Assembly (NCBI GenBank): GCA_945883565.1
Contig: CAMCXO010000010.1
Span: forward strand, 8,019-72,018
Source: Chryseobacterium gleum
Lineage (GTDB): Bacteria > Bacteroidota > Bacteroidia > Flavobacteriales > Schleiferiaceae
Length of the DNA: 64,000 nt
Reading direction: 5' to 3'
Shown here: positions 34,816 to 63,187 of the stretch, one piece after another
How positions within the stretch are numbered: position 1 is the first letter of the stretch
Layout of the letters: every line of letters begins with the position of its first letter
Translations under genes and position numbers: made by a program
The notes under the pieces: model-generated
The model's database searches: none
Seen by the model: the letters and a program-made list of their open reading frames with translations, nothing else
Told to the model about the DNA's origin: nothing

Positions 34816-36711
34816 ATGGGACGCATACAAGTAACCGCAGAGAACATTTTCCCAATTATTAAAAAGTTTCTGTATTCAGACCACGAAATTTTTCTTCGCG
34901 AACTTATCAGCAATGCCGTTGACGCCACCCTCAAATTAAAAACACTCTCGAGACTAGGCGAAATACCCGGCGAATTGGGCGAACTTAAAATTGAAGTAAA
35001 GCTCGATAAAAATGCCAAAACCCTCACCATCTCCGACCGTGGTATTGGCATGACCCAAGATGAAGTAAACCGATACATCAACGAAGTGGCCTTTAGTGGG
35101 GCCGAAGAATTCTTAAAACAATACAAAGACAAAGCACCCGATACAGGCATCATTGGGCATTTTGGACTCGGGTTTTACTCGGCCTTTATGGTTGCCGAAA
35201 AGGTTGAAATTATTAGCCGCTCGTGGACCAGCCAGGAACCAACCAACGCGGTACACTGGAGCTGCAAAGGCGACCCGGAATTTGAAATGGGCAATGGGGA
35301 ACGCGAATTTAGAGGCACAGACATCGTGCTGCACATCAATGCCGAAAGCGAAGAGTTCTTAGAAGAATACCGCATTCGCGAACTACTTAAAAAATACTGC
35401 CGCTTTTTGCCCATTCCCATCCAATTCGGCACCAAAGAAGAAACCATTAAAACCGGTGAAGGCGATGAGGCAAAAGAAGAAAAGAGCACCATCCCCGATA
35501 TAATAAACAACGCTTTGCCCGCCTGGACCAAAGCCCCGGCCGATTTAAGCACCGAAGACTACGACAACTTCTACCGCGAGTTGTACCCCATGAGCTTCGA
35601 AAAACCTCTGTTTTACATCCACCTCAATGTAGACTACCCTTTTAATCTAAACGGTATACTCTACTTCCCTCGCATAAAGCCCAATATGGAGCTTCAGCGC
35701 AACAAAATACAACTCTACCAAAACCAGGTATATGTAACCGATAGCGTAGAAGGTATAGTGCCCGATTTTCTCACCATGCTGCATGGGGTTATTGATTCGA
35801 AAGACATTCCGCTTAACGTTAGCCGTTCGTATTTGCAAGCCGATGGAAACGTGAAAAAAATATCGGGACACATCACCAAAAAAGTGGCCGATAAACTCGA
35901 AGAGATGTTCAAAAACGACCGCGAAGCCTTCGAGAAAAACTGGGACGACACCAAGATTATTGTAGAATACGGAATGCTTACCGAAGAGAAATTCTTCGAT
36001 AAAGCCAAGAAATTTTATCTGCTTAAAGACACTACAGGCCGTTTTTACACCCTCGACGAATACCAAACCGAACATGGTAAGCTGCACGAAGACAAGGATG
36101 GAAATCAAATTTGGTTGTACGCTTCCGATGTCACCGCCCAGCATACAGGCATCGAACAAGCTCAGGAACGAGGCTACAAAGTGCTGGAAATGAAGTCGCC
36201 TTTGGCCTCCCACTTACTCGATAAGTTTGAACGCGACCTTAAAAACACCCGTTTTGCACGAGTAGACAGCGATGCCATAGACCAGCTCATTAAAAAAGAC
36301 GATCAAATGCCTGCCTTGCTAACAGAAGAGCAAGAAAAGGACCTTAAAACCTGGACCGAAGCAGAACTCGAAACATCTAAGTTTCAGGTAAAAGTAGAGC
36401 GCCTCAGCAGCCAAGACGGCCCAATACAAATATTTGTACCCGAATTTATGCGCCGAATGAAAGAAATGAGCGCAACCGGTGGCGGTTTCATGGGCATGGG
36501 CGATTTCCCCGAAACCTACGAACTAAGCGTAAACGCCAACCACCATTTGTGTGGCAAGCTGTTTGGCTTAAGCCCCGAAGCCCGAACCGAAAGCTTGCGC
36601 GAACTCATCGATTTGGCAAAACTCCAGCAAAACCTGTTACACGGAGCCGAACTCAGCGCCTTTATAAAACGCACAAGAACCCAACTCGAAGACAAACTCG
36701 CCCAGCAATAG
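34816..36711 (+). CDS. htpG: molecular chaperone HtpG (Hsp90)
   Basis: 631 aa. ELISNAVDA, DRGIGMTQDEV and GxxGxG of the GHKL ATPase; middle and C-terminal domains. Confidence 0.93.
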   Translation: MGRIQVTAENIFPIIKKFLYSDHEIFLRELISNAVDATLKLKTLSRLGEIPGELGELKIEVKLDKNAKTLTISDRGIGMTQDEVNRYINEVAFSGAEEFLKQYKDKAPDTGIIGHFGLGFYSAFMVAEKVEIISRSWTSQEPTNAVHWSCKGDPEFEMGNGEREFRGTDIVLHINAESEEFLEEYRIRELLKKYCRFLPIPIQFGTKEETIKTGEGDEAKEEKSTIPDIINNALPAWTKAPADLSTEDYDNFYRELYPMSFEKPLFYIHLNVDYPFNLNGILYFPRIKPNMELQRNKIQLYQNQVYVTDSVEGIVPDFLTMLHGVIDSKDIPLNVSRSYLQADGNVKKISGHITKKVADKLEEMFKNDREAFEKNWDDTKIIVEYGMLTEEKFFDKAKKFYLLKDTTGRFYTLDEYQTEHGKLHEDKDGNQIWLYASDVTAQHTGIEQAQERGYKVLEMKSPLASHLLDKFERDLKNTRFARVDSDAIDQLIKKDDQMPALLTEEQEKDLKTWTEAELETSKFQVKVERLSSQDGPIQIFVPEFMRRMKEMSATGGGFMGMGDFPETYELSVNANHHLCGKLFGLSPEARTESLRELIDLAKLQQNLLHGAELSAFIKRTRTQLEDKLAQQ

Positions 36712-36790
36712 GCAAGTATAGTTTAATAAACAGGGCGCCCCCACTTGGGTGTTAAATCCAAGCTTTGTTTATAAAAGTCCGGTCCCCAAG

Positions 36791-36823
36791 CGGGCCGGGC
36801 TTTACGCTCCAAGTCCTCGCCGC
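36791..36823 (+). repeat. GC-rich conserved motif, copy 1 (CGGGCCGGGCTTTACGCTCCAAGTCCTCGCCGC)
   Basis: Matches 62960..62992 at 32 of 33 nt. In both places it lies downstream of a gene's 3' end and upstream of a 21-nt-period tandem repeat. Confidence 0.8.
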
Positions 36824-36893
36824 ATTAAAAAGCCCACAACCAAACCCAAACCCGGGCGCGGCTGTGGGCTTTCCTCTTCAATCCCTGGCGCGG

Positions 36894-37460
36894 CTTCAAA
36901 CGTTAAACTACCCACGTCAAACATTCAACTGCCCGCTTCAAACGTTCAACTGCCCGCTTCAAACGTTCAACTGCCGACTTCAAACGTTCAACTGCCCGCT
37001 TCAAACGTTCAACTGCCCGCTTCAAACGTTCAACTGCCGACTTCAAACGTTCAACTGCCGACTTCAAACGTTCAACTGCCCGCTTCAAACGTTCAACTGC
37101 CGACTTCAAACGTTCAACTGCCGACTTCAAACGTTCAACTGCCGACTTCAAACGTTCAACTGCCGACTTCAAACGTTCAACTGCCGACTTCAAACGTTCA
37201 ACTGCCCGCTTCAAACGTTCAACTGCCCGCTTCAAACGTTCAACTGCCCGCTTCAAACGTTCAACTGCCGACTTCAAACGTTCAACTGCCCGCTTCAAAC
37301 GTTAAACTGCCCGCTTCAAACGTTCAACTGCCGACTTCAAACGTTCAACTGCCCGCTTCAAACGTTCAACTGCCGACTTCAAACGTTCAACTGCCCGCTT
37401 CAAACGTTCAACTGCCGACTTCAAACGTTAAACTACCCACGTCAAACATTCAACCGCCGG
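36894..37460. repeat. 21-bp tandem repeat array, about 27 units
   Basis: Unit CTTCAAACGTTCAACTGCCCG, alternating with the variant ...CTGCCGA. Head-to-tail with no spacers. Because the unit is a multiple of 3, every frame is open, which produces artefactual ORFs (LPASNVQ, QTFNCPL and AVERLKR repeats). Confidence 0.9.
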
Positions 37461-37471
37461 CTTCTCCAATT

Positions 37472-38190
37472 TTTTTACCGACGTTTTCAAATTATCAATA
37501 GACTTCAAACCTTCCCGCGCCGGCATCAAACACTCATTATTTGGCTTCGAGTATTCATCAATAGGCATTTTCAATTTTTTTACCGGCGTTTTCAAATTAT
37601 TTACAGCCTTCGAATGTTCAACGGCCCACACGGACAACGTAGAGACAGGGCATGCCCTGTCTCTACAATCGTTCATACAATCGCCCAAAAGACCAACCAA
37701 TTGAAGAAATTAAATAGCCGCAGGCTTAGAAAAAATCCATCCTAACACCCAAATCACTATAAAAAAAATAAATCCCGGCCCTTTCAGCATGGCGGCAGGT
37801 AAACAGCCGAAGAGGCTTAGTAAGACCACACGAAGGAGCTCGCCCGGCCGCACTTAGCCTCTTCAATGGAGACCAGCCGACATGATGAACAGGCCTTGAC
37901 CTTTTGCCTACTTTTGGGTCAAGCCAAAAGTAGGAAGCCCCCGCGCCGGCGATTGAGGCGCCCAGAAGATCAACCAATTGAAGGAATTCAATGGCCGCAG
38001 GCTTAGAAAAAATCCATCCTAACACCCACCAGCGTTTTCAAATTATTTACAGCCTTCGAATGTTCAACGGCCCACACGGACGATTGTAGAGACAGGGCAT
38101 GCCCTGTCTCTACAATCGTTCATACAATCGCCCAGAAGATCAACCAATTGAAGGAATTCAATGGCCGCAGGCTTAGAGAAAAAATCATTT
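37472..38190. repeat. mosaic direct repeats: two ~150-bp units (37588-37735, 38033-38185) and a ~65-bp 3' module present three times. Each large unit contains the perfect 28-bp palindrome GTAGAGACAGGGCATGCCCTGTCTCTAC.
   Basis: Direct comparison: the units are about 95% identical. Module CGCCCA(R)AAGA(Y)CAACCAATTGAAG(R)AATT(M)AATGGCCGCAGGCTTAGAAAAAATC occurs at about 37681, 37958 and 38129. A further inverted repeat CCTACTTTTGGgtcaagCCAAAAGTAGG lies at 37905-37932. Confidence 0.85.
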
Positions 38191-46526: not shown

Positions 46527-48013
46527 TGGGTACAACCATCAATAAACCACAGATTTCAACTTTAGGAGAGCTTAGAGCACAGGGCTATCAGCCGAAATCC
46601 ATTCGCGAAGAACTCAGAGACAATTTGCTTCTGTTTTTGGCGAAAGGCGAAAACGTGTTTAAAGGCATTTATGGATACGAACACAGCGTAATTCCAGATC
46701 TGGAAAGGGCCATTTTGTCTAGGCACCACATTAATCTGCTGGGTTTACGCGGACAAGCAAAAACGCGATTGGCTCGTCAAATGGTGGATTTGCTAGACCC
46801 ATGGATTCCGTTTTTACCGGTTACCGATCTAAACGAAGATCCTCTGTCACCTATAAGTGGTTTGGCCAAGGCTTATGTAGAAGAAATGGGCGATAAGGCC
46901 GAAGTAAGATGGCTTCACCGCAGCGAGCGCTATTTTGAGAAGCTGGCCACTCCCGATGTAAGTGTAGCCGACCTTATTGGCGATTTAGATCCAATTAAGG
47001 CGGCAAATCTTAAAATTCCCTATTCGGATGTAAGGGCCATTCATTTTGGTATGATTCCACGGGCCAACCGCAGCCTATTTGTCATAAACGAGCTGCCCGA
47101 TTTGCAGGCCAGAATACAAGTGGCCCTATTTAATATTTTACAAGAAGGCGATATTCAAATTAGGGGGTTCAATTTGCGCTTGCCTATCGACATTCAATTT
47201 GTGTTTACGGCCAATCCGGAAGACTATACCAACCGTGGTTCTATTGTAACCCCATTGAAAGACCGAATTGGCTCCCAAATAATTACCCACTATCCGCCCG
47301 ATATTCAAACAGCCTCGCAGATTACCGCCCAAGAGGCCCGTTTAACAAACAGCCAAAAATCGAAAATAGAATTGCCCGGCTTGGCAGGCGAGCTCTTAGA
47401 ACAAATTGGCTTTGAGGCACGAAAAAGCGAGTTGGTGGATTCTAAAAGTGGGGTGAGCGCCCGTTTAAGTGTAAGCGCATTTGAAAACCTTTACAGCACA
47501 GCCGAAAGACGTTTGGTGAAGAATGGAGAAAAACAAACCACTATTCGTTTAAGCGATTTTATGGGCACATTGCCAAGTATTGTAGGCAAGGTAGAATTGG
47601 TATATGAGGGTGAACAAGAAGGGGCGGCTGGTGTAGCAGAAGCCCTGTTAGGCGCAGCCATCAAAGCTTTGGTGGCCAAATACCTGCCAAGCATGGAAAA
47701 ATTAAAAAACACCTCGGTTAACCATCCTTATCATGGCATATTGAACTGGTTTTCGGAAGGAAATGAAATCAATTTGGCTTTTGATGCCTCAAACACCCAA
47801 TACGAGAACGCATTTAAAACCTGCAAGCCTCTGCTCGATTTTATCAAAAACCTAAAAAATCAGAGCTTTAGCGATCATAAGTTCTTTATTATGGAGCTCG
47901 TGCTCTGGGCTTTATCAGAACACGCTAAACTGAATAGAGACAAACTTATCGACGGATTTCAATTTGGCGATCTCTTTGGCGCTTACTTACAAGGCTTAGG
48001 CAAAGAAGATTAA
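46526..48013 (+). CDS. ChlI/BchI-like AAA+ family protein with non-canonical Walker motifs
   Basis: 495 aa. YGYEHSVIPDLERAILSRHHINLLGLRGQAKTRLAR resembles the Mg-chelatase subunit I N-terminus. Putative Walker A is GLRGQAKT. Putative Walker B is LFVINELPDL, with Asn replacing Asp. Start overlaps the VWA stop (TAATG). Confidence 0.6.
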   Translation: MGTTINKPQISTLGELRAQGYQPKSIREELRDNLLLFLAKGENVFKGIYGYEHSVIPDLERAILSRHHINLLGLRGQAKTRLARQMVDLLDPWIPFLPVTDLNEDPLSPISGLAKAYVEEMGDKAEVRWLHRSERYFEKLATPDVSVADLIGDLDPIKAANLKIPYSDVRAIHFGMIPRANRSLFVINELPDLQARIQVALFNILQEGDIQIRGFNLRLPIDIQFVFTANPEDYTNRGSIVTPLKDRIGSQIITHYPPDIQTASQITAQEARLTNSQKSKIELPGLAGELLEQIGFEARKSELVDSKSGVSARLSVSAFENLYSTAERRLVKNGEKQTTIRLSDFMGTLPSIVGKVELVYEGEQEGAAGVAEALLGAAIKALVAKYLPSMEKLKNTSVNHPYHGILNWFSEGNEINLAFDASNTQYENAFKTCKPLLDFIKNLKNQSFSDHKFFIMELVLWALSEHAKLNRDKLIDGFQFGDLFGAYLQGLGKED

Positions 48014-48032
48014 ATGGTGGATATTTTGGTGG

Positions 48033-48830
48033 TCATCCATTTACCGTGTTGACCACCACATACACAATGCCCCCCATGATAATCATGAAATAAGTGAAAA
48101 TAGAAAGGGCCAAAGACAAAATGGCCTTTATAAATTTCCTGCTCCATTTGCCGTTAAACAAACTGTGGTAAACCCAAATGGCGTACGCAAAGTAGGCCAA
48201 TGTGTAAACCGTTGCCCAAACACCGGGGTTTCCGGGAAGAAACAGGGTAATAAAAAACACCACATAGCTGTGAACGAAAACGTAGGTGTTTATAACGGTA
48301 TGTTCTATAAAATTGAATCCACTTTTTCGAAAAAATAAAAAAGAAAAAAGCGCATTGGTCACTATGGTAATAATAGACCAAACGTTTTGGTATTGAATAA
48401 AATAATTGTTGTAGGCATCCTTAAAAGCCTGCATCACTTTTTCACCCTCTATTTTCTTTTCGTTTCCCTCTCCATCCTCTACATTGCCTTCTATTTTTAT
48501 GGCCTCATCAAAATCAATGAGGTTTTGAAAATAGCCGGTCGCGTTTGCCGCGTAAAGGGCTAAACCAACAATAAGCAAAAAGTATTTTACCGGACTGGTA
48601 ATCAAATCGCGCTCTAGGCCTAAATAGGCTTTAATGATATGAGCGGGTTGGTAACTTAAGCCAACAAAGGTTCGAACAAAGCCTTTGTTAATGTTGAATG
48701 CCTCGCTCACTTCGGCAGCCAGGTTCGGAATCGATAGTCTTCTGATGTTGCGGTGCCGAACTACTTCTACTTGATTGTTTGTCCATAACTCAAGCAATGG
48801 GTCGGTTTTCTCCAAATTCTCTTTTAACAT
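48033..48830 (-). CDS. hypothetical membrane protein
   Basis: 265 aa. Several TM helices; Glu/Lys-rich loop. No recognisable family. Confidence 0.5.
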   Translation of the reverse strand: MLKENLEKTDPLLELWTNNQVEVVRHRNIRRLSIPNLAAEVSEAFNINKGFVRTFVGLSYQPAHIIKAYLGLERDLITSPVKYFLLIVGLALYAANATGYFQNLIDFDEAIKIEGNVEDGEGNEKKIEGEKVMQAFKDAYNNYFIQYQNVWSIITIVTNALFSFLFFRKSGFNFIEHTVINTYVFVHSYVVFFITLFLPGNPGVWATVYTLAYFAYAIWVYHSLFNGKWSRKFIKAILSLALSIFTYFMIIMGGIVYVVVNTVNG

Positions 48831-48887
48831 CGTTTAGGCTAAAATTTGTTGCCGAATGTATAAAAACGTCTTTCATAAAACTTCGGC

Positions 48888-48918
48888 ATCACGGAAAACC
48901 GTGATTTACAAAATCACA
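48888..48918. promoter_or_regulatory. candidate operator: perfect inverted repeat ATCACGGaaaaCCGTGAT plus a third half-site ATCACA 7 nt downstream
   Basis: Seen directly in the divergent intergenic region between the 48033-48830 (-) gene and the 48993 (+) T9SS gene. Confidence 0.35.
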
Positions 48919-48992
48919 GAATAAAGGGACTTTGATGTTGCAGAAACCCATGACTTTCGTCTACATCAACATCACCCTAAATTCCAATCGCC

Positions 48993-51900
48993 ATGAATAA
49001 CAAACCCCACATCAACGAAGGCCTGTCAAAAAATTTACCCCAGCGCCCAAAAGAAGTTAAATGGATTCGGTTAACGGCCGCTTTTCAATTGCTGCTGTGC
49101 CTTCTGGGAATTTTGGCTTTGAGTCAGGCACAGGCTCAAATACCCATTCACTTGCCAAATCACTTTAGTGCAACAGACCGTATAAATGCGTTTGCCGAAA
49201 AAGGCGATACCTTGTTTTTGGCCGGGGCTTTCGAGAGTTTAGCGCCTGTTCATCCTTTTGGCGCCATCAGCAACTTGGCCATGGATCAAATAAACTACCA
49301 GGCAGCTACTCCAAACAACGAAGTTTTTGATGCCATTGCCGATGGACAAGGTGGTTTTTATGTGGGGGGCAGTTTTACGCAGGTAGGCGGCCTAGTCCAG
49401 AACCGCGTGGCCCACTATGATGCCAATGGACAATTACTACCGCTCTCTGTTTCGGTTGACGATGGCCACGTTGAGTCTTTGGCTTTATCGGGGAATATTT
49501 TGTTTTTGGGCGGGTCGTTTACTTCGGTTGATGGACAAGCCAGAACCGGTTTGGCCGCCTATGATTTACAATCGGCCAGCTTATTGCCTTGGAATCCAGT
49601 GTTTACAAGTGTATTCTTAACACCTTGGGTAGGTAAGTTACTTATTCACAATCAAACCCTTTATGTAGGAGGGTTTTTTAATCAGGTAAATGCACAACCC
49701 CGAACTTTATTGGCGGCTTTCGACCTCAATACTTTGAATTTAAATGCCTTTGCACCCAGTATCTCGGGTTTTACGGTAGAAGATATGTTGGTGCACAACG
49801 ACCATTTATATTTTTGCGGTGATTTTACCAGTGTTCAGGCCACATCCAGAAAAAGCGTAGCGGCTATAAATCTTTCCAATAATCAGTTAAGCAATTATGC
49901 CCCTATTATCACGGGTACTGTAAGTTCAATGGTTTTTCACAATGCTGCTATTTATTTAGGAGGATCATTTAATGCCTCAGGCTCTTTGTTCCGCGGACTT
50001 TTGTCGAGTAACCCAAATACCGGCAGCTTCAACCTTAACTGGGTTCCAGGTTTTAATACTGCGGTTATTGAAAAAATGGCAGTTATAAACAACACATTAT
50101 GGGTAGGTGCAAGCCAAATCTCGTACAGCAGTGGAAGTCCATCTAAGCGGTTTGTGGCTCTGGACTTAAATACCGCACAAAGATTGCCCAGTTCTTTAGC
50201 TAGCGATGCGAATATCAATACCTTTTGCCAATCAAACAACCAGGTTTTTGTTGGTGGAAAGTTTAAAACCATTGGTACAGGAAACAAGAATTACTTGGCA
50301 GCCATTTCCAAAAGCACAGGAGCGGTATTGGCATGGGCTCCCTTTGTAAACAAAGAGGTAGATGCCCTTTTGGTAGATGGTAATACCTTGTATGTTGGCG
50401 GCCGATTTACCGAAATAAATGGAAACGCTGCCGGCTATTTAGCTGCCTTCGATTTTAATGCCGCCGGCAATTTGTTGCCATGGAACCCAAATATGAGCCA
50501 TGCGGTATACAGCCTTGCCCAATCCAATCAAGTGCTTTATGCAGGTGGCAATTTTACCCAAGCAAATGGACAAGCCCGGAACCGTTTGGCCGCATTCGAT
50601 AAACTGAATGGGGCTTTATTGCCATGGAATCCCGGCGCCAATGCTTGGGTTTTGGATTTGAAAGTGCATAACAACACTTTGTATGTAGGCGGGCAATTCA
50701 CCCAATTGTCAGGCATTCAAAGAAATTATGCCGGAGGCTTTGATTTAACCACTGGGTTATTGGCCAATTGGAATCCCAACGCCAATGGCATAATAAGAAG
50801 TATTGCGCCCGATGGACTAAATATTTACATAGCCGGAGACTTTACCAATTTGGGAGGACATCCAAATGCCGGTGGGTTTTTACGACTTCGATTGGCTGAA
50901 GTAGATGCCCTTAATGGGGTTCCTACGTCTTGGGAGGCTGCAGACAATACGTTTTTAAGTCCCGACATTCAGTCGGTTAACAGTTTAGCCATTTTAGATT
51001 CAACCTTGGTTGTGGTGGGTGAGTTTACCAAAATAGGAGTAGGGGGCGCATTGCGCTTAAATGCAGCTTTGCTAAGCAAACAAACCGGAATGGCCCTTAA
51101 CTGGAATCCATTTGATGCCTCAGCATCGCTTTCGAAGGTGTATTATTCCGATAATAAAATTTACATAAGCGGAAACATGGATCAAGTGGATGGGCAACTA
51201 CGAAGAAATTTAGCCGTATTCCAAATCAATCCGGCTCCGGTTTGCCCTACGCATCAATTAAACGCCATGGTACAGCCAACTTATTCGGTGGCTTTAACCT
51301 GGAATGCCATAGCCCCACAGCACCGTTTACAATGGCGTACGCTAAACGAAGCAAACTGGTCATCGGCACTGGTTGCCGGCACCCAACGCTTTATTCAGAA
51401 TTTAGCCCCGGGCGATTACGAAGCCCGCGTTTATGGAGTGGGTTTAGGCGATACGTCTTGCCTTGTAACCTTTAATATTGGCTGTGCCAACAACATAAGC
51501 TATGCTTCCAATGTATTTCAAGCCGGTTACCTCGATGCTTTGCCCGGCAACAGCGCCCGGGTAAGTGTATTTAATGTAAGCGGCGGAAAAAGCCTTTACA
51601 GCTTCGAACTTGAAAACCTATCTAACAACGGCATTCAAAGAGCAGACAACAGGCGCAATTACACCTTCAATCAACTGGCCGGCGGCAACTATGTGCTGAG
51701 GGTATATGACGCCTTTAACTGCCAAGCCGATTCTGTTACCCCCATCGCCATAAACGCCCTCGATACGGCCTATATACCTAACTTAATTAGCGCAGTAAAC
51801 AGCAGTCCCAATGGTTTCAGACCCATTTGGAACCATCCGCGCCAAAATGGCGCTTTAATGCCGGGTATTTTGAGCTACCAACTGCGGGTGCGCAACGAAA

Positions 51901-52331
51901 CCGACAACCAATTGGTGGATTTGTACACAGGCATAGCCGATACTTTCTTCCACGTAAACAACCTCACCCCCGGCAAATTGTACCGCTTTAACGTTAGGAG
52001 TCGCTACAATCCGGGCGATGGGGCCCGCAATTCGGCCTTTTCTGTACGCCGCGACCGAAACCTGGGCTTAGGCGGCAATAAAACAGAGGGTGCAACAGGA
52101 GTTGAAGAATACATTCGCATCTTCCCCAACCCCGCAACCGATGCGGTGTATGTAGAATGCCCAATAGGCAGCCACATAAAACTCCTCGACCTCCAAGGCC
52201 GGTTGTTGAAAAGCTTAACCACTGATAAGCCTGTAATTAGTCTAGATTTGGGTGCCTGTTCAAGAGGCACTTATATACTTGAAATCGATAACCAAGGCCA
52301 ACTTAACCGCCAAAAAGTGGTGAAACCATAA
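48993..52331 (+). CDS. T9SS-secreted delta-60 repeat beta-propeller protein with C-terminal FN3-like modules and type-A sorting domain
   Basis: 1112 aa. Signal peptide. More than ten degenerate ~50-60-aa repeats of the form GG.FT..NG...R..LAA.D..G.LLPWNP (delta-60 / TIGR02608-like). The C-terminal ~340 aa is paralogous to the C-terminus of the 57886..62838 gene. C-terminal CTD is FPNPATDAVYVECPIGSHIKLLDLQGRLL...KVVKP. Confidence 0.8.
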   Translation: MNNKPHINEGLSKNLPQRPKEVKWIRLTAAFQLLLCLLGILALSQAQAQIPIHLPNHFSATDRINAFAEKGDTLFLAGAFESLAPVHPFGAISNLAMDQINYQAATPNNEVFDAIADGQGGFYVGGSFTQVGGLVQNRVAHYDANGQLLPLSVSVDDGHVESLALSGNILFLGGSFTSVDGQARTGLAAYDLQSASLLPWNPVFTSVFLTPWVGKLLIHNQTLYVGGFFNQVNAQPRTLLAAFDLNTLNLNAFAPSISGFTVEDMLVHNDHLYFCGDFTSVQATSRKSVAAINLSNNQLSNYAPIITGTVSSMVFHNAAIYLGGSFNASGSLFRGLLSSNPNTGSFNLNWVPGFNTAVIEKMAVINNTLWVGASQISYSSGSPSKRFVALDLNTAQRLPSSLASDANINTFCQSNNQVFVGGKFKTIGTGNKNYLAAISKSTGAVLAWAPFVNKEVDALLVDGNTLYVGGRFTEINGNAAGYLAAFDFNAAGNLLPWNPNMSHAVYSLAQSNQVLYAGGNFTQANGQARNRLAAFDKLNGALLPWNPGANAWVLDLKVHNNTLYVGGQFTQLSGIQRNYAGGFDLTTGLLANWNPNANGIIRSIAPDGLNIYIAGDFTNLGGHPNAGGFLRLRLAEVDALNGVPTSWEAADNTFLSPDIQSVNSLAILDSTLVVVGEFTKIGVGGALRLNAALLSKQTGMALNWNPFDASASLSKVYYSDNKIYISGNMDQVDGQLRRNLAVFQINPAPVCPTHQLNAMVQPTYSVALTWNAIAPQHRLQWRTLNEANWSSALVAGTQRFIQNLAPGDYEARVYGVGLGDTSCLVTFNIGCANNISYASNVFQAGYLDALPGNSARVSVFNVSGGKSLYSFELENLSNNGIQRADNRRNYTFNQLAGGNYVLRVYDAFNCQADSVTPIAINALDTAYIPNLISAVNSSPNGFRPIWNHPRQNGALMPGILSYQLRVRNETDNQLVDLYTGIADTFFHVNNLTPGKLYRFNVRSRYNPGDGARNSAFSVRRDRNLGLGGNKTEGATGVEEYIRIFPNPATDAVYVECPIGSHIKLLDLQGRLLKSLTTDKPVISLDLGACSRGTYILEIDNQGQLNRQKVVKP

Positions 52332-52353
52332 TCAACCATAAAACCAAATCGAA

Positions 52354-54642
52354 ATGAATTTTCAAATCATACTTTTTCTTTTTTGCGCGGGTCTTTTCAC
52401 GCTTAACGCCCAACAACCCGGCAGTTTGGATGTGTCGTTCAATCCGGGAACGGGCGCGAATAATGTTGTTAATTGTATACGTATTCAGCAAAATGGCAAA
52501 ATCTTAATTGGAGGTGATTTCACTTCTTATCAAGGCATTACCCGAAACAGAATAGCCCGTTTAAATGCTGATGGCAGTTTAGACCCTACGTTTAATCCCG
52601 GTAGTGGGGTGAATGGTGAGGTAAAGTGTATAGTAATCCAGCCCGATGGCAAAATCCTAATCGGAGGCAATTTTACCGTGTGCAATGGTAACCCTCGCAA
52701 TAGAATAGCTCGGTTAAATTCGAATGGCAGTTTGGATGCTAGCTTTAACCCTTCGTCGGGGTCCAATAATGAAGTTCTCGATATGGCCCTTAATTCTACA
52801 TCCGGAAAAATTACGGTAGTAGGAAGTTTCACCGAATTTAATGGAATTGCCACAGGCAGAATAGTCCGCCTAAATTCTAATGGCAGCATAGACCCGAGCT
52901 TTAACAGCGGAATAGGTTCAAACAACGCCATTACTTCGATTATTTTACAAACAAATGGAAAACTTATAATAGGGGGCAATTTCGATACGTACAATGGTAT
53001 TTCTCGCAGCCGAATTGCACGCCTTAATGTAAATGGTGGTTTAGATTTTACGTTCAATCCCGGCACGGCAGCAAACACATTGTCTATAGTGAATGCCATC
53101 ATTCATCAGCCCGATGGTAAAATTATAATAGGAGGCGATTTCGGTACATTTAATGGTGTTACGCTCAACAGAGTAGCCCGCTTGAATACCGATGGTAGCC
53201 TCGATAACACCTTTAATCCAGGGGTGGGTGCCAACCTTGATGTTTACACCATGGCCCTTCAACCCGATGGTAAAATTTTAATTGGAGGCAACTTTACTAC
53301 ATATAACGGCAACGTTCTTAATAGAATGGCTCGACTTAATGCCAACGGAAGCTTAGATACCACTTTCAATACGGGCTTAGGTTTTACAACCGGGGCAAAT
53401 TTTGTTTTTGTGTCGGAAATTGCCATTCTAAACGATGGTCAGGCCCTTGTAGCAGGTTCGTTTACCCGTTACAACGGAATCAGCCGTAAGCGCATGGCTA
53501 AACTTCATGCTTATAGAAACATTTATACCGATTCGGCCATTGTTACCGGACCAAGTTCGGCGGCGGTGCACGCTACCGTTGTTTCAGGAGGCGGGGCTCC
53601 AATAACGGCGCGAGGCTTTTGTTTCAATACTTCAGGTAATCCCAACTTGTCCGATAGCACCACTTTAAATGGAATGGGGCTTGGTAGTTTTGGTCAAGTT
53701 TTAAACAACCTTGCACCGGGCACTACCTATTATGTAAAAGCTTATGGCACAAATAGTATAGGCACAAGTTATGGCAACGAATTGAGCTTCATAACCCAGT
53801 ATTCAGCCCCAAGTTTAATTACCGACAGCGTTACTGATATGGCATTTTTTACAGCCAAGGTTTATGGAAATGTTCTCTCTAATGGGGGATCAGCCATTTC
53901 ATCGCGTGGTTTTTGTTACAATACCACCGGCAGTCCGAGTTTGTCCGACAGCATCAAAACAGCAAACGGCAGTTTAGGCAATTATAGCCGTCAGCTCAAT
54001 GCTTTAGCTTCCAACACCACCTATTACGTAAAGGCCTATGCCACCAACAGTGTGGGCACGGCTTATGGCAACGAGTTGAGCTTTTCAACTTTAAGCTACC
54101 TGGCGCCAGATTTAAGCACCGATAGCATTTCCAACATTAGCCGCACTGCTGCCAAGGTTTATGGAAATGTTTTTTCTAATGGGGGTTCAGCCATTTCATC
54201 GCGTGGCTTTTGTTACAACACCACCGGCAGTCCCAGTTTGTCCGACAGCATCAAAACAGCAAACGGCAGTTTAGGCAATTATAGCCGTCAGCTCAATGCT
54301 TTAGCTTCCAACACCACCTATTACGTAAAGGCCTATGCTACCAACAATGTGGGCACGGCTTATGGCAACGAACTTAGTTTTACCACAGCCGGATTAGGCT
54401 TAAACAGCCCGAATATCCCTAAGTTAAGGGTATTCCCCAACCCCGCAACCGATGTGGTGTATGTAGAATGCCCAATAGGCAGCCACATAAAACTCCTCGA
54501 CCTCCAAGGCCGGTTGTTGCAAAGCTTCATCACAGAGAGCATTCAAGCCGGTTTAAACCTGGCCGCTTATGCCAAAGGCAGTTATGTGCTTCAAATAGAG
54601 CATCAATCTTTTGTAAGTCGACAAAAAGTGGTGAAACATTAA
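52354..54642 (+). CDS. T9SS-secreted delta-60 repeat protein with triplicated Ig/FN3-like modules and type-A sorting domain
   Basis: 762 aa. Signal peptide. Canonical delta-60 repeats (GGDFTSYQGITRNRIARLNADGSLDPTFNPG...) x~8. Three modules ...RGFCYNTTGSPSLSDS...TTYYVKAYATNSVGTAYGNELSF, the last two near-identical at DNA level. CTD nearly identical to that of the upstream gene. Confidence 0.85.
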   Translation: MNFQIILFLFCAGLFTLNAQQPGSLDVSFNPGTGANNVVNCIRIQQNGKILIGGDFTSYQGITRNRIARLNADGSLDPTFNPGSGVNGEVKCIVIQPDGKILIGGNFTVCNGNPRNRIARLNSNGSLDASFNPSSGSNNEVLDMALNSTSGKITVVGSFTEFNGIATGRIVRLNSNGSIDPSFNSGIGSNNAITSIILQTNGKLIIGGNFDTYNGISRSRIARLNVNGGLDFTFNPGTAANTLSIVNAIIHQPDGKIIIGGDFGTFNGVTLNRVARLNTDGSLDNTFNPGVGANLDVYTMALQPDGKILIGGNFTTYNGNVLNRMARLNANGSLDTTFNTGLGFTTGANFVFVSEIAILNDGQALVAGSFTRYNGISRKRMAKLHAYRNIYTDSAIVTGPSSAAVHATVVSGGGAPITARGFCFNTSGNPNLSDSTTLNGMGLGSFGQVLNNLAPGTTYYVKAYGTNSIGTSYGNELSFITQYSAPSLITDSVTDMAFFTAKVYGNVLSNGGSAISSRGFCYNTTGSPSLSDSIKTANGSLGNYSRQLNALASNTTYYVKAYATNSVGTAYGNELSFSTLSYLAPDLSTDSISNISRTAAKVYGNVFSNGGSAISSRGFCYNTTGSPSLSDSIKTANGSLGNYSRQLNALASNTTYYVKAYATNNVGTAYGNELSFTTAGLGLNSPNIPKLRVFPNPATDVVYVECPIGSHIKLLDLQGRLLQSFITESIQAGLNLAAYAKGSYVLQIEHQSFVSRQKVVKH

Positions 54643-54660
54643 AGTTCGACAGCAAAACGA

Positions 54661-54687
54661 AAAGCCGCCTTCGGGCGGTTTTTTTAT
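54661..54687 (+). terminator. rho-independent terminator
   Basis: AAAGCCGCCttcgGGCGGTTTTTTT. Confidence 0.8.
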
Positions 54688-54895
54688 GCTTTAAGCCAAA
54701 AGCTTTGGGGTAAACCGCCATAACACCAACACCAAAAGCCAATGCCAAGTCTATAAAATGGCAATGGTTTTAGGGCCATAACGCCAACCCCCAAAAAGCC
54801 CAAAGGTCTTAACAAAGCCATAATACGGCCTTGACAATGCCTCGGCAGTCCCCTTCTACTTTTGAAGGGTTCTGAACCAAGGGAAGCGTATTCCC

Positions 54896-56776
54896 TTGAT
54901 TCGGCCATCAAACACCATTCGTATGTTGAGCCAATTTCTAAAACAGAAGTACTTTCCGGTTTGGGTAATGCTATTTTCTTTAGGCCTTAGTCTTTTAAGC
55001 CTCAGAACATCTTCTACCCAAATGGCCCATGCGGCCTACGAATCATGGTTCTTAAATACCGATGCCCTCCTCCGCAGCAAAGCCGAAGCAGCCATTGAAT
55101 CGGCTAACTTATACCTCAATCAACCCAACCTTCAAGCTCAGGTTCAATACGATGTGGCCCAGCTTCGATTGGCCTATAAAGCCATAGAGTGGTGGGCAGC
55201 TTTCCATTTTCCGGAGTATTGTGAAGAATACCTAAACGGCGCACCGGTTATGCAAAGCGCCCGACTCGATAACCGAAGTTTCGCCAAATTGCCCGAAGGC
55301 TTGCAAGTAATAGACGAAGCTGTTTGGGAACCATCTTTAGACGATGAACTCAAAAGCAAAACGGCTCAAGACATCTTGCAATTCAGAAACCGTTATTTCA
55401 TTTTAAGAAACCATCTTAAAGACCTTAGTCCAAAACCCAAAGAAGCCTCTACCGCCATGCGGCTCGGAATTGTGCGCTTGTTTAGTTTGGGCTTAAGTGG
55501 TTTCGATACGCCTGGCTCGCAAAATGCCTTGGCCGAAAGCGCCGCAAGTCTTCGTTCCATGCAAGAATGCTTGCCATGGTTGCATTTTGAACCCGGGCAA
55601 TTACAAAAACTCGATTCGCTGTTTCATTTAGGTATTATAACCCTTAACCAAGCCCAATCATTCGAATCGTTCGACCGCCTGCATTTTCTCAAGCAGGTTG
55701 TAAATCCGCTTTATGCCGCTTTGTACGAACCCGGACAGCAACCGAATAACCGTGGTTGGAACCCAGAGAGTAAATCGCTATTCGACCCACATTTTCTAAA
55801 TCCATACTTCTTTACCGAACTAACGCTTGAAGAGGATTCAAAGGAGCTAAGGGCCCTCGGACAACAACTGTTTAACGATGTAACCCTAAGCAAATACCAA
55901 AACCTGAGTTGCGCTACCTGTCATCCTTCCCATTTGGCATTTCAAGATGGATTGCCAAAATCTGAATCTAACCAAAATGGCACCCAATTAGAGCGAAATA
56001 CACCGGGCTTGATTAACTCGGTATTTGCCGACCGCTATTTTTACGACCTTCGGGCCTATACCCTCGAGCAACAAGCCGAACACGTTATTTTCAACGCTTC
56101 TGAATTTGCCACCAATTACAACGAAATCATAGAGCGTCTCAATGCCCAAAAGGCCTACCGAAAAGCCTTTAAAAAAGCATTGGGTAAAAAGCAGATAGAA
56201 AGAGCCGACGTACAAGCGGCTTTGGCTTCTTACGTTTTATCGCTTACAGCCTTTAACAGTCCGTTCGATCGCTATGTAAGGAACGAATCCGAATCGCTGA
56301 ACCCCGATGCCATTAGGGGCTTTAACCTGTTTATGGGGAAGGCCGCTTGCGGAACTTGCCATTTCGCCCCATTGTTCTCAGGTTTGCTGCCTCCCGAATT
56401 TAGAAAAAGCGAAAGCGAAGTAATTGGCGTTTTGTCTAAACCCATCGAAATGGAAAACAACCCCCAAAACGCAGGATTAGACGCTGACCTTGGGCGCTAT
56501 AACAATGGGGTGCCCAGCGAACAACTTCAAGCCCACAAGCATGCTTTCAAAACCACCGGATTGCGAAATGCCCAAAAAACAGCGCCTTATTTTCACAATG
56601 GAGCCTATCCAAGTATGAAATCGGTTTTAAACTTTTACAACCACGGAGGCGCCGCCGGTTTGGGATTAGACCTGCCAATACAAACCTTGGCGGCCGATTC
56701 TCTGCACTTAACCACCGGCGAGATTCAAGACTTAGAAGCCTTTATCAACAGCTTGACCGATGTTCCACCATACTAA
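54896..56776 (+). CDS. di-heme cytochrome c peroxidase family protein with ~300-aa N-terminal extension
   Basis: 626 aa. Two CxxCH heme motifs (CATCH and CGTCH); conserved CCP/MauG blocks NTPGLINSVFADRYFYD and APYFHNGAYPSMKSVLNFYNHGG. N-terminal TM/signal segment. Confidence 0.8.
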   Translation: MIRPSNTIRMLSQFLKQKYFPVWVMLFSLGLSLLSLRTSSTQMAHAAYESWFLNTDALLRSKAEAAIESANLYLNQPNLQAQVQYDVAQLRLAYKAIEWWAAFHFPEYCEEYLNGAPVMQSARLDNRSFAKLPEGLQVIDEAVWEPSLDDELKSKTAQDILQFRNRYFILRNHLKDLSPKPKEASTAMRLGIVRLFSLGLSGFDTPGSQNALAESAASLRSMQECLPWLHFEPGQLQKLDSLFHLGIITLNQAQSFESFDRLHFLKQVVNPLYAALYEPGQQPNNRGWNPESKSLFDPHFLNPYFFTELTLEEDSKELRALGQQLFNDVTLSKYQNLSCATCHPSHLAFQDGLPKSESNQNGTQLERNTPGLINSVFADRYFYDLRAYTLEQQAEHVIFNASEFATNYNEIIERLNAQKAYRKAFKKALGKKQIERADVQAALASYVLSLTAFNSPFDRYVRNESESLNPDAIRGFNLFMGKAACGTCHFAPLFSGLLPPEFRKSESEVIGVLSKPIEMENNPQNAGLDADLGRYNNGVPSEQLQAHKHAFKTTGLRNAQKTAPYFHNGAYPSMKSVLNFYNHGGAAGLGLDLPIQTLAADSLHLTTGEIQDLEAFINSLTDVPPY

Positions 56777-57689
56777 ATTTCGTTTCACTTGGCTGACTGC
56801 TTTCGTGTGTATTTTGATTTTACCCATACCACTAAAAGCCCAGTTTGCCGATCCTACTGCCATTGTTCACACCAGCATGCAATCGGCATTGGCCGATACT
56901 TCTAAACGGGTTCACCTCAACCTTCGCGATCAAAAACTGTTGTTGGTAAGTCCTCAATTGGCCGAAATTCAACACTTGGTGTTTCTTAATTTAATGAAAA
57001 ACCAATTGGAAGATTGGCCAATGGCTTTAAACTCAGCCAAAGCGCTTGAAGTGCTCAATTTGCGCGAAAACCGCTTGGTTGTTATTCCGGCCAGCATTAA
57101 CGAATTAAAGCAGCTGCGCACCCTCGATTTAATTCAAAATGAAATCAAAGCCTTACCAAGCCAAATAGGCGACTTGCAAAACCTGGAGTACGCTTATTTC
57201 AACCTCAATCGGCTTACCAGATTGCCCGAATCTTTGGGCCAATGCAGTAGGCTAAAAGTTCTTGAACTTCAGGTGAACCAACTAAGCAGTCTTCCCGCAG
57301 GCATTCAAAATTTGAGTAACCTAAAAGTATTGCGCCTTTCCGACAACCATTTTTACGACTTGGGCGAACATTTGAAAGGACTAAAAAGCTTAGAAGAACT
57401 CCATCTCGACAAAAACCGTTTGCAAAAGTTGCCGAATGAGATAGGGGGACTTAAAAACCTCAAAGTTTTGATGCTAACCAACAACCAGCTAAGCCAGCTG
57501 CCCGAATCGCTTTGCCAACTCGAAAAGTTAGAAATGCTCCTGCTTTCTGATAATCCACTGAAACAATTGCCCCAAAACATTCATCGCCTTAAAGCTCTAA
57601 GAACACTGAGTCTTTTAAATTGCCCCATTGGCGAAGACGAAAAAGCCCGAATTGTGAAAGCCCTCCCCAATTGCAGGGTGGTGTTTTAA
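56760..57689 (+). CDS. leucine-rich repeat (LRR) protein, secreted
   Basis: 309 aa. Signal peptide; about 10 LRRs (LxxLxLxxNxLxxLPxxIxxL). Overlaps the CCP gene by 17 nt. Confidence 0.8.
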   Translation: MFHHTKFRFTWLTAFVCILILPIPLKAQFADPTAIVHTSMQSALADTSKRVHLNLRDQKLLLVSPQLAEIQHLVFLNLMKNQLEDWPMALNSAKALEVLNLRENRLVVIPASINELKQLRTLDLIQNEIKALPSQIGDLQNLEYAYFNLNRLTRLPESLGQCSRLKVLELQVNQLSSLPAGIQNLSNLKVLRLSDNHFYDLGEHLKGLKSLEELHLDKNRLQKLPNEIGGLKNLKVLMLTNNQLSQLPESLCQLEKLEMLLLSDNPLKQLPQNIHRLKALRTLSLLNCPIGEDEKARIVKALPNCRVVF

Positions 57690-57885
57690 GATGATTAGGG
57701 TTTTTTCTGTGTCATGAATTTGTGAATAGATTGTTAATGTATTAAAACCTATAATAGTTTGTAATGCTGAGGATTATAAGATTTATGACTTAAAGACTTT
57801 ACAGTATAGTAAAGATAAAATCACATTTCGCTGCTGCTAAGTTCATGTAAGAGTTGGTGCTTCGCTGCAAACCTAAATCCCTTAT

Positions 57886-60800
57886 ATGAAGAAATTTACC
57901 TTCACACTTTTGGGCTTGTGTTGGCTCGCCATTTCGGCAAGCGCACAGGTACAAACCTTCGAGAAGCGCATTGCAGCTTCTACCGACGATGCTGAAGAAC
58001 GTGGCGCCAATGCTACCTCTTCGGTTGGTGCTATGGACATAACCAGCTCCGACCTCGAGCTTACGCGCGACGGAAGCAGCACCGGCAACCAATTTATTGG
58101 CATGCGCTTTATTGGGGTTAACATTCCTCAAGGCGCCATCATCCAAAACGCCTACATTCAGTTTGAAGTAGATGAAACTCCGAACGAAAGCGGAACCCTC
58201 ACCTTCGAAGTGCAAGACGCCGACAATCCGAGCACTTTCGTTAGCACGGGTTTTAACATCTCATCTCGCCCACGTGTAGCCGGTGTTTCAGTAAACTGGA
58301 GCAACATTCCAACTTGGACAGTGGTTCAACAACAGGGCGTTAATCAGCGTACCCCCGATTTGAAAACCTTGGTACAAGCCTTGGTAAGCCGTTCGGGTTG
58401 GGCAAGTGGAAACGCTATGGTATTCATAGTAAGTGGAACAGGCAAACGCACGGCCGAAGCCTATGATGGCTCTACTTCAGGTGCTCCTAAATTGGTGGTT
58501 GAATACGTGGTTCCGGTAACGGCTACTTTCAATATTTTAAGTGGAAACGACGACGTAGAACAAGACGTTAATACTGGGGCAATGGATTTAAGCAGCTCTG
58601 ATTTAGAGTTTACCGCCGATGGCAGCAGCATCCAACTTATTGGTTTGCGCTATGGAAACGTAAGCATTCCTCAAGGTTCTCAAATTTTAAGCGCCTATGT
58701 ACAATTTACAGTAGACGAGGTTAACACCACAGGAACCGTTAACGTTTTAATAGCGGCCGAAAACGCAGCCAACAGCTCGCCCATTACCGCAGCCACCAAC
58801 AACCTGGCTTCTCGCAGCTATACTTTTGGAGCAGTTCCAACCATTTGGACGCCCGGTGCTTTCTCTACCGTAGGCGAAAGCGGTCCTGCACAACGCACTC
58901 CCGATATTTCCGGTCTTATCCAATCATTGGTAAACAATGTGTCATGGAACAGCGGCAATGCCATTTTATTGGGCATGGTTGATCCGGCCATTGTAAGTGT
59001 TCCTGGCTTTAGCCCAAATACGGCTAAGCGCGTGGCCCAAACTTACGACCGCGACCCAAACAACGCCGCTAAATTGGTGGTAAGCTTTATTCCTCCGGCT
59101 ACCTATCAAACCGGAACTTTCCCAATTGCTGCCGGTGCTTCATGGAAATACCTCGACGACGGAAGCGATTTGAGCGGAACCAACTGGACGGCTACCCAAT
59201 ACAACGACAGCAGCTGGGCTTTTGGCAATGCGCCTCTTGGCTATGGCGATCCGGTAACCACCACAGTAGGTTTCGGCCCAGATGCCAACAACAAATACAT
59301 CACCACCTATCTGCGCAACACTTTCACCATGTCGAACACGGCTCAATTCGACAGCTTGCAATTCCGTGTGCGCCGCGACGACGGGGCAGTGGTTTACCTA
59401 AACGGTGTTGAAGTTTTCCGCCAAAACATGCCCAACGGTGCGGTTACGGCCGGTACATTGGCCTCTACAGCAGTAGGCGGAAGCGATGAAACCACTTTCT
59501 TCGTTAACATGACCGATAACCTGTTGGTAAACGGGCTTAACGTGGTAGCGGTTGAACTTCACCAAAGCGCTGCCAACAGCTCCGATATGGTATTCGATAT
59601 GGCCATAAGCGGCAAAAAACCACCTTTGGCAGCAGCAAGCTTCCCATTCTTAGCCGGAAGCGAATGGCATTACCGCGACAATGGCGCTTGTTTCGATGGC
59701 ATGCCATGGAACACCAACGCCATGAGCGACGACAACTGGGCCCAAGGCCGTGCACCACTTGGTTATGGCGATCCAATGGCCACCACCATTTCTTTTGGTC
59801 CAGATCCTAACAACAAATTCATTACCTATTATTTCCGCCGCGATATCGACATCGATCTAGCCCAATTGCCCGATACCATCGAATTTGGTCTTCGTCGCGA
59901 CGATGGCGGGGTGGTTTATGTAAATGGTGTGGAGCTTTTCCGCAGCAATATGCCAAGTGGCGTATTTACTTGCGATTCTACCGCCCCTGCTACCATTGCC
60001 GGTGGAGACGAAACCGTTTACTACACCTACCTATTGCCTAAAACCGTTTTCAACCAAGGCATCAACGTTTTGGCCGTAGAAATTCACAACCGCGATATTT
60101 TCAGCTCAGACCTGGGATTCGATCTTTACATCAAAACCCCTCCTTTCTTTAACCCACCGGCTTTAGGTTGTTCTAATGGCAACGAGGCACATTTTGCTTG
60201 CTTCACCTCTTTGCAGCCATCGGCCCAAGGCCCCACAATGGTGATTCCTTCAAGCCACCGCTTCCAAATGTTGTGGAAACAAGGTCAAGCCTACAGCAAA
60301 GGCGGAGGCATTGCACCCGGTTTACACGACTTCACCGGCTATGTAGCCACGAACGGCAGCAGCGAACTAGGGCATCTTTCTATTAACCACGAAACCGCTC
60401 CTGGTGGTGTGTCTTTGCTCGATATGCACTACGACAACGCTTCTAACCTTTGGGTTATAGACACTTCAGAAGCAGTAGATTTCAGCCATCCGGCTTTGGT
60501 TCGCACCGAACGCAACTGTTCTGGCGGCATTACCCCTTGGGGAACGGTGGTAACAGCCGAAGAAACAGGATCTGCAGCCGATGCCAACAACGATGGTTAT
60601 TTTGATGTGGGTTGGTTGGTAGAAATAGATCCGGTTTCGGCCAAAGTACGCGATTACGACAACGACGGAAATCCAGATAAAATTTGGGCTGCCGGCAATG
60701 CCAGCCACGAAAATGCTTGCTTCACCAACGATTCGGCCGTAATGTACTGGGGCGAAGATGGCGGTTCAAGCGCGGTATTCAAATACGTAATGACCAGCAA

Positions 60801-62838: not shown

Positions 62839-62863
62839 AAAGAAACGCCTTACCAAACCAAAA

Positions 62864-62890
62864 GGCCGCCTTCGGGCGGTCTTTTTTTTT
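62864..62890 (+). terminator. rho-independent terminator
   Basis: GGCCGCCttcgGGCGGTC followed by T9. Same hairpin core as the terminator at 54661. Confidence 0.85.
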
Positions 62891-62959
62891 GACTTAAAAT
62901 AGGGCGCCCCCGCGCGGGGCAAAAGGTTTATGCAAGGCCAAAATACCATCAGCCCCTCG

Positions 62960-62992
62960 CGGGCCGGGCTTTCCGCTCCAAGTCCTCGCCGC
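62960..62992 (+). repeat. GC-rich conserved motif, copy 2 (CGGGCCGGGCTTTCCGCTCCAAGTCCTCGCCGC)
   Basis: 32 of 33 identical to 36791..36823. Flanking similarity extends further (GGGCGCCCCC upstream; GGCTG(Y)GGGCTTT...CTGGCGCGG downstream). Confidence 0.8.
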
Positions 62993-63187
62993 CATTGTCT
63001 GAACCATGATTTTCTGGATTTAAGGATGGGCATGATTAATTCAGAAGGCTTTGGTCAAGGCGGCTGCGGGCTTTACGCTGCAATCGCTGGCGCGGACTGT
63101 CTGGTTTTTTTGTTGTTTGTTCTTGTAGAAACGTTATTTATTTTTGTTAAGACTTGGTTCAAATTACCTGCCTTGATGAGCGCATCT

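Follow-up and report, generated by a model that had tools for sequence, protein, structure and literature searches.

A stretch of 64,000 nucleotides (nt) from Chryseobacterium gleum (assembly GCA_945883565.1, contig CAMCXO010000010.1), referred to here as the window, contains a GC-rich sequence that recurs at two distant loci and is followed at each by a tandem repeat of 21-nt period. A preliminary description read the two parts as one architecture, a shared leader with periodic repeats, and considered a repeat-generating element, a family of small structured RNAs, or a recombination or integration hotspot. What is the recurring sequence, and do the repeats belong to it? Judged by sequence and covariance-model comparison, each locus carries one diverged, insertion-bearing copy of Flavo-1 (Rfam RF01705). 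The canonical element measures about 80-130 nt; by the same comparison, insertions in its two variable hairpins have lengthened the window copies to 163 and 196 nt.

Two copies of Flavo-1 in the window

Coordinates are those of the 64,000-nt window, on its + strand. The core CGGGCCGGGCTTT(A/C)CGCTCCAAGTCCTCGCCGC is present at 36791-36823 and again at 62960-62992, with 32 of 33 positions identical. A AGGGCGCCCCC block starts at 36732 and 62901, at each locus 65 nt 5' of the first box, and a GGCTG(Y)GGGCTTT...CTGGCGCGG block lies 3' of the core at both loci. The core and the downstream block can be understood as two copies of a single box, GGGCTTTnCnCTnCAAnnCCTnGC. In its degenerate form, GGGCTTTNCNCTNCAANNCCTNGC, the box occurs four times on the + strand at the two loci, where 0.05 occurrences are expected from shuffled sequences, and the observed total of five was reached in 0 of 100 shuffles. 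The earlier view that the same element occupies both loci is thus borne out. A covariance scan of the whole window with filters off, using the model R1 described below, revealed no copies beyond these two (elements 1 and 2).

The window gives no match to Rfam at gathering thresholds. At relaxed thresholds, the Flavo-1 model matches the first locus at 36789-36899 on the - strand (25.5 bits, E = 0.0025) and is the sole Rfam family with an E value below 0.01 there; the second locus yields a weak match to the same model (16.9 bits, E = 0.8, 62958-63096, - strand). R1, a covariance model built from 29 canonical copies in which the helices P1, P2 and P3 and a GGG:CCC helix are specified, scores element 1 at 63 bits (E = 1e-12) and element 2 at 61.5 bits, and detects 129 further copies in the Bacteroidota and Spirochaetota loci that were fetched. 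It recovers one of the two Flavo-1 matches that reach the Rfam threshold (in locus L012), on the opposite strand. In the published Flavo-1 alignment, rows such as GCGUUAGGGAUUGCAGCGGAAAGCCCACAG...GCGAGGACUUG.AGCG.AAAGCCCGACC match the R1 consensus when reverse-complemented.

The likeness also covers layout and host range. Flavo-1 and the window elements both have a twin box (GGGAUUGNAGCGGAAAGCCC on Rfam's strand) on either side of a variable hairpin, with two GCUUUCCGCUNCAA-type boxes whose ends are paired. The published range of the Flavo-1 motif covers Flavobacteria, other Bacteroidetes and Spirochaetes (Weinberg et al. 2010, Genome Biol 11:R31), as does that of the family found here, and the window, which encodes Por_Secre_tail proteins of the type IX secretion system (T9SS), comes from a host that fits this range. 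The window copies differ from typical Flavo-1 in that P2 and P3 hold inserts of 35-78 nt. Neither P2 nor the 5' arm of P1 is reached by the published 76-position model, and the pairing of the ends is thus not displayed in it. Flavo-1 is among the most abundant 'sRNA' (small RNA) families in Rfam (PMC9029176). The literature searched reports no function for it, and a literature search on the box sequence returned unrelated primers only.

Fold of the family and the folding strand

Members of the family share a closed fold, in which P1 joins both ends (GGGCGxy...y'x'CGC) and encloses, in order, hairpin P2, box 1, hairpin P3 and box 2. Written out, the architecture is (T)GGGCG-xy / P2 / (t)c-GGGCTTTnCGCTnCAA-N-TCCTCG / P3 / CTGy-GGG-N'-TTTnCnCTnCAATCCCT / y'x'-CGC. 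The boxes form a direct pair (GGGCTTTnCGCTnCAA-N-TCC), and the base of P3 arises from pairing between the 3' half of box 1 and the 5' half of box 2. A further helix, between GGG of box 1 and CCC of box 2, leaves two near-identical 11-nt strands opposed in a symmetric internal loop. P1 and P2 extend Flavo-1 beyond the published model: the element is longer than that model and closes on itself.

This fold is supported by covariation. In the alignment of the 29 canonical copies, 94% of cells are paired, and in none of 500 shuffles was any of the five measures as high. A larger alignment of 118 copies, which was fitted to R1 and is therefore biased towards the structure, has 96.2% of cells paired and double changes at 16 of 20 pairs, compared with 32-59% paired in controls with slid partners. 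The central pair of P3 is seen in all four Watson-Crick types (AAGTCC/GGGCTT, AATTCC/GGGATT, AAATCC/GGGTTT and AACTCC/GGGGTT), and P1 covaries through GCGTT/AACGC, GCGTG/CACGC, GCGCA/TGCGC, GCGCC/GGCGC and others. The GGG:CCC pairs and the base of P3 also covary across the family, as does P2, which is a short hairpin in canonical copies. The inner box-to-box pairs of the Rfam model are compatible with the set of copies aligned here and show no significant covariation in it. Strong covariation and membership in Flavo-1 together support the view that the two loci belong to a family of structured elements, close to one of the possibilities raised at the outset.

The strand that folds is probably the + strand of the window, opposite to the Rfam annotation, because one P3 pair is a near-invariant U·G (105 of 114 sequences) and G·U exceeds A·C by 135 to 17 overall.

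Organization of the window copies

Element 1 (36732-36894, 163 nt) begins with the 5' box AGGGCGCC (36732-36739), which includes the P1 5' arm GCGCC (36735-36739), paired with GGCGC at 36887-36891. The expanded P2 (36740-36796) has arms CCCACTTGGG (36740-36749) and CCCAAGCGGG (36785-36794), a 35-nt insert and a linker CC, and a small terminator-like hairpin lies within it at 36744-36762. Box 1, GGGCTTTACGCTCCAAGTCCTCGC (36797-36820), fits the family pattern exactly, and the base of P3 is formed by AAGTCC, the 3' half of this box, together with GGGCTT of box 2. The variable P3 insert covers 45 nt (36821-36865), and box 2, GGGCTTTCCTCTTCAATCCCT (36866-36886), together with the P1 3' arm GGCGC completes the segment 36866-36891. 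The insert contains AAAGCCCACAACC, whose alternative partner is GGCTGTGGGCTTT. The hairpin formed by these two sequences had been noted before as a stem of 12 base pairs. It is real and part of the minimum-energy fold (-63.7 kcal/mol, compared with -51.7 kcal/mol for the consensus fold), with the corrections that it has one A·C mismatch and that it competes with the family fold.

Element 2 (62901-63096, 196 nt) is the same element as that at 36732-36894. The 5' box is again AGGGCGCC (62901-62908), with the P1 5' arm GCGCC at 62904-62908 pairing with GGCGC at 63089-63093. Its expanded P2 (62909-62965) has arms CCCGCGCGGGG and CCCCTCGCGGG; P2 is 57 nt long in both window elements, and the stem sequences differ but are compensated. 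Box 1, GGGCTTTCCGCTCCAAGTCCTCGC (62966-62989), matches the family pattern, and the P3 insert of 78 nt (62990-63067) folds into a long extended hairpin. Box 2, GGGCTTTACGCTGCAATCGCT (63068-63088), is followed by the P1 3' arm and GGA, so that the last segment spans 63068-63096. The consensus fold of element 2 (-70.3 kcal/mol) is near its minimum-energy fold (-75.5 kcal/mol).

Both copies lie 3' of genes, as was described previously. The 5' neighbor of element 1 is the HSP90/HtpG gene (34816-36711); that of element 2 is the gene for a 1650-amino-acid PhoX/Por_Secre_tail (T9SS) protein (57886-62838), whose intrinsic terminator (62860-62885, + strand), an 11-bp stem followed by T9, precedes the element. 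Each copy is on the same strand as its upstream gene and begins 21-63 nt past the end of that gene. In model columns the two copies are 84% identical, no closer to each other than to copies from other genomes, and the 32 of 33 match in the core therefore reflects conservation across the family and not a recent duplication. On this comparison, the window copies would be old and separately maintained.

The 1.5-kb spacer that holds element 1 also harbors another repeat, of about 150 nt, at 37600-37750 and 38035-38190; part of a further copy lies at about 37958-38028. Within the repeat are the perfect palindrome TGTAGAGACAGGGCATGCCCTGTCTCTACA and, on both strands, promoter-like hexamers.

Distribution and gene context of the family

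A scan of GTDB genomes with the degenerate box gave at least 115 loci. The GTDB matches listed include Flavobacteriaceae, Cyclobacteriaceae, Chitinophagales, Mucilaginibacter and Tannerellaceae, as well as termite-gut Spirochaetales and Treponema metagenome-assembled genomes (MAGs). Copies are intergenic and their orientation to genes appears random: by counts that use crude open reading frame (ORF) calls, 22 are tandem and co-oriented, 14 tandem and anti-oriented, 19 convergent and 15 divergent. Co-oriented copies outside the window often begin 5-60 nt past a stop codon. No neighbor protein family recurs within about 4 kb of the loci; the top neighbor 'clusters' proved to be spurious ORFs that read through the element. 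In 80 unselected htpG loci (about 590 kb, taken as other Bacteroidota) there are 0 copies, and the element is therefore not an htpG feature. The htpG identity in these loci is 62% at most, with the best relatives on metagenome contigs, and among them there was no orthologous site, filled or empty, for comparison. A metagenome scan for the window-specific core returned no match.

Two orthologous pairs are present among the loci, and both are filled. The element is 91-93% identical within the pairs, while the spacer is unalignable in one and the wider flanks are 69-83% identical in the other; at orthologous sites the element is thus better conserved than its immediate flanks. No direct repeats or target-site duplications were found in the flanks of 83 copies, and the copy flanks have no T-tract at the 3' side and no conserved promoter spacing. 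The sequence ATTTGG is conserved immediately 5' of the element. A Bacteroidetes -7 promoter box (TAnnTTTG) at this edge was considered and rejected, as its spacing is wrong in the copies read.

One Spirochaetales MAG, Gx481_bin132 (JAISAF01..., loci L010-L113), contains dozens of copies. Many of these have TTATAATTCGGAATTT before the element and GCGCRCCCAGCGGC plus further hairpins after it, in a manner similar to the mosaics known as bacterial interspersed mosaic elements (BIMEs), and their P1 varies between GCGCA, GCGCC and GCGCG with compensation. The element is rare in viruses (12 of 2.9 million viral contigs). Nine IMG/VR contigs (L200-L208) carry near-identical 81-nt copies with at least two types of upstream flank and one common downstream flank. 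One of these contigs, L205, encodes proteins that, judged by eye, are integrase-, excisionase- and KAP-NTPase-like, and the sequence around its element is common to four other viral contigs.

The 21-nt tandem arrays

Arrays of period 21 with unrelated units follow both window copies, as had been reported, and were delimited with Tandem Repeats Finder. Array 1 (36894-37458; 26.9 copies of CTTCAAACGTTCAACTGCCCG) is a minisatellite that adjoins element 1, starting 0 nt past its 3' end; array 2 (63188-63280; 4.4 copies of CTGCGAAGGTGACTTACGAGA) starts 92 nt past the end of element 2. In L116, a short-read assembly of the same genome, array 1 is shorter by 19 copies (a 399-nt offset), perhaps through real variation, perhaps through collapse of the repeat in short reads. 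Array 2 occurs in the window haplotype only, being missing from L198, a second assembly of the same population (see below).

The likeness of the window array units to the element's box is not significant (p = 0.06-0.85 over both arrays; p = 0.69-0.85 for array 2). Among the 129 non-window copies, a tandem repeat lies within 500 nt downstream of 10 and upstream of 7, with periods of 7, 12, 14, 18, 19, 24, 30 and 128 nt as well. Four long 21-nt arrays were seen in other loci. Two of these, both in termite-gut Tannerellaceae MAGs, are close to Flavo-1: L032 3861-4360 (24 copies, 97 nt downstream of the element) and L013 2499-2837 (13 copies, 166 nt downstream). The other two, in L023 and L111, lie between genes, and even with filters off no element was detected near them. 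We conclude that the 21-nt arrays are independent minisatellites in common permissive spacers and are not part of the Flavo-1 family. The proposal of a leader and its periodic repeats as a single architecture is accordingly not supported; in essence, the intergenic repeat is a common one that tandem repeats do not generally accompany, an outcome that the preliminary description had itself set against its proposal.

A - strand frame in array 1 (36897-37460) reads as about 26 heptads of AVERLK(R/S) in a coiled-coil-like pattern, with decayed in-frame heptad copies upstream and three stops that interrupt it. This frame could be what is left of a dead repeat-protein gene, or a product of chance. 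Array 1 as a coding sequence was rejected on account of these stops, and no intact ORF runs across it. Elsewhere in the window, a 22-nt tandem repeat of two copies, GTTTTTCTTAAGCTTTTTCGCT, is located at 10609-10651.

The 3' edge of element 2

L198 (ENA ERZ27280270) is identical to the window over 47886-63050, with 0 single-nucleotide polymorphisms (SNPs) in 15.1 kb. The only SNPs between the two, at 63051, 63060 and 63067 (3 in 46 nt), fall in the P3 insert of element 2 or at its edge. Homology is lost after 63096, three bases past P1; this position is both the last base common to the two assemblies and the 3' end of element 2. Divergence at this end, together with the start of array 1 at the 3' end of element 1, fits a recombination-prone edge. 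The earlier suggestion of a recombination or integration hotspot thus gains weak support from these two edges.

Past 63096, the window continues with the 21-nt repeat and then a segment of 33% GC. The GC content falls from about 50% to 33% over 63300-64000, a segment that is absent from L198, and an ORF that starts at 63530 and runs off the window end has an HTH_3 domain with, behind it, the C5-methyltransferase-like motif FSGIGAIE. The segment looks like foreign restriction-modification or island DNA. A short peptide at the end of L198 appears transposase-like by eye but has no Pfam match, and the assignment was dropped. A 38-nt module, CCCGGCCCTTTCAGCATGGCGGnnGGTAAACAGCCG, is found downstream of element 1 in the window (37774-37811) and 45 nt downstream of element 2 in L198 (15256-15293), with a different hairpin after each copy; it may represent a second structured repeat family. 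In a third assembly, L117 (Logan ERR3719161_23442), the contig ends inside element 1, at box 1, which suggests that the repeat breaks short-read assembly graphs.

Nature of the element

Rfam files Flavo-1 as a small non-coding RNA. In that case the copies would be transcribed alone or as the tail of a 3' untranslated region, would act in trans or stabilize or terminate the upstream mRNA, and would use the twin CUNCAA boxes as functional loops. Strong covariation, the near-invariant U·G wobble, the better conservation of orthologous copies than of their flanks, and the location of co-oriented copies shortly behind genes, which includes both window copies, are all in line with an RNA. However, orientation to genes appears random, with some copies in divergent promoter regions, the flanks lack conserved promoter spacing and a T-tract, a strong terminator already precedes element 2, and the strand favored by G·U pairs is opposite to the annotated one. 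Likewise, the features of an intrinsic terminator or an independent sRNA gene are missing from the copies, which have no 3' T enrichment and only ATTTGG conserved on the 5' side. In the F. psychrophilum transcriptome, Flavo-1 matches are sense or antisense to transcribed regions, and many lie outside them (PMC9723704). We therefore regard an sRNA as a doubtful reading, though the most substantial of the alternatives, and consider it moderately probable that Flavo-1 is a DNA element that folds as a single strand, similar to the repetitive extragenic palindromic (REP) sequences. A distribution in any orientation and untethered to genes, and a strain-level breakpoint at the 3' edge, fit such an element better than they fit a small RNA.

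Other explanations account for less. A leader that seeds or controls the adjacent 21-nt array, like a CRISPR leader or a repeat-generating module, would explain the arrays 0 and 92 nt downstream of the window copies and those in L013 and L032; it is very unlikely, since 119 of the 129 other copies lack a tandem repeat in the 500 nt downstream and 7 have one upstream, periods vary, L023 and L111 have arrays and no element, and the window units are mutually unrelated and not box-like, with array 2 absent from the other haplotype. Paired ends, multiple intergenic copies, the conserved A/T-rich ATTTGG directly 5' and the very many copies in one spirochaete MAG are what might be expected of a classical miniature inverted-repeat transposable element (MITE) or the end of an insertion sequence (IS), with P1 as the terminal inverted repeat for a DDE transposase and target-site duplications made on insertion. 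Yet the P1 sequence is not conserved and covaries even within one MAG, which makes it a poor fit to sequence-specific recognition of terminal repeats; moreover, direct repeats are absent from the flanks of the 83 copies, no transposase recurs within about 4 kb, and orthologous copies persist between species. The idea of a conserved IS or MITE end is thus improbable and is set aside. Least credible of all are a CRISPR array decayed to two repeats and one spacer, and an integron attC site. Two direct repeats of about 22 nt with a variable segment of 8-80 nt between them recall the former; conserved unpaired bases in the fold, as in attC, and the structural breakpoint at the 3' edge of element 2 recall the latter. 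But the boxes never exceed two, the 'spacer' is a base-paired hairpin and no cas genes recur nearby, while the order of the terminal motifs here is GCGTTA...TAACGC, replaced by GCGCC or GCGTG in other lineages, and cassette arrays of one orientation are not seen.

Several observations weigh against the interpretation as a Flavo-1-type, REP-like DNA element. Both window copies score below the Rfam gathering cut-off of 42 bits, as do most of the canonical copies in 18 loci, where two matches reach it. The family fold of element 1 is 12 kcal/mol worse than the competing fold, because the AAAGCCCACAACC/GGCTGTGGGCTTT hairpin competes with it. Minimum-energy folds favor neither strand (37 of 83 favor +, p = 0.24), and the strand call is based on the U·G pair and on the G·U excess, the latter partly biased by alignment on the + strand. 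No mobilizing enzyme, target-site duplication or empty site was found near the copies examined. The breakpoint at 63096 is based on two assemblies, for which an assembly error at the repeat is possible. Finally, the L032 array unit, CCTCCAAGCCC, resembles the element's box (p <= 0.006), and the 21-nt arrays near an element (window array 1, L013, L032 and the shorter window array 2) are all downstream of it and none upstream, so that a weak but real link between element and array is possible.

On balance, our analysis points to a non-autonomous element that would act in a folded, single-stranded state, as DNA more likely than as RNA, and that may be mobile. The twin boxes would be a likely binding surface for a dimeric protein, and the spacers marked by the element may be sites that tolerate or promote rearrangement, insertion and minisatellite growth. 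A more specific version of this REP-like reading, which we think unlikely, is that Flavo-1 is a structure-specific recombination or insertion site read as folded single-stranded DNA: the two identical boxes in the symmetric loop would be bound by a dimeric enzyme that Bacteroidota share with some Spirochaetota, its action at the 3' foot of P1 would let foreign DNA and minisatellites (often of 21-nt period) accumulate exactly there, and the family would be a new class of att-like sites and not an sRNA. The window itself contributes little new biology, as it holds ordinary family copies with tandem repeats as bystanders; but if the DNA reading is true, many Flavo-1 'sRNA' annotations in Bacteroidota genomes would need to be read anew.

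Comparison with known systems

The defining features of CRISPR, attC, MITE and REP elements, the last with their REP-associated tyrosine transposases (RAYTs), fail in Flavo-1 where they can be tested. CRISPR arrays have at least three regular repeats, unique spacers and cas genes, whereas Flavo-1 always has exactly two boxes. The attC sites are closer in form: they are, and Flavo-1 would be, recognized as folded single strands, and both have conserved unpaired bases, a variable terminal hairpin and, putatively in Flavo-1, a recombination junction at one edge. An attC site, however, starts with RYYYAAC and ends with GTTRRRY, motifs that in Flavo-1 are in the wrong order and not conserved, and Flavo-1 has no cassette arrays and no linked integrase and occurs in mixed orientation.

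With respect to REP sequences, Flavo-1 differs in its 5' end, (T)GGGCG, which has no GTAG or CGTC foot, and in being a three-helix unit with two direct boxes instead of a single hairpin. No RAYT (TnpA-REP) gene adjoins any copy, among neighbors within about 4 kb of the at least 115 loci. The 'atypical' REP-like hairpins of the Bacteroidetes RAYT subclass 2.6 (GCTAG/GCTGG plus a hairpin; PMC6006769 Table S1) were considered as relatives and rejected, being unlike the Flavo-1 boxes. The resemblance lies instead in the general plan. The REP and BIME elements of Proteobacteria, like Flavo-1, are short, structured, high-copy intergenic repeats found in either orientation, in which the fold outweighs the sequence of the stem and mismatches are strand-specific. 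They are also known hotspots for insertion and rearrangement.

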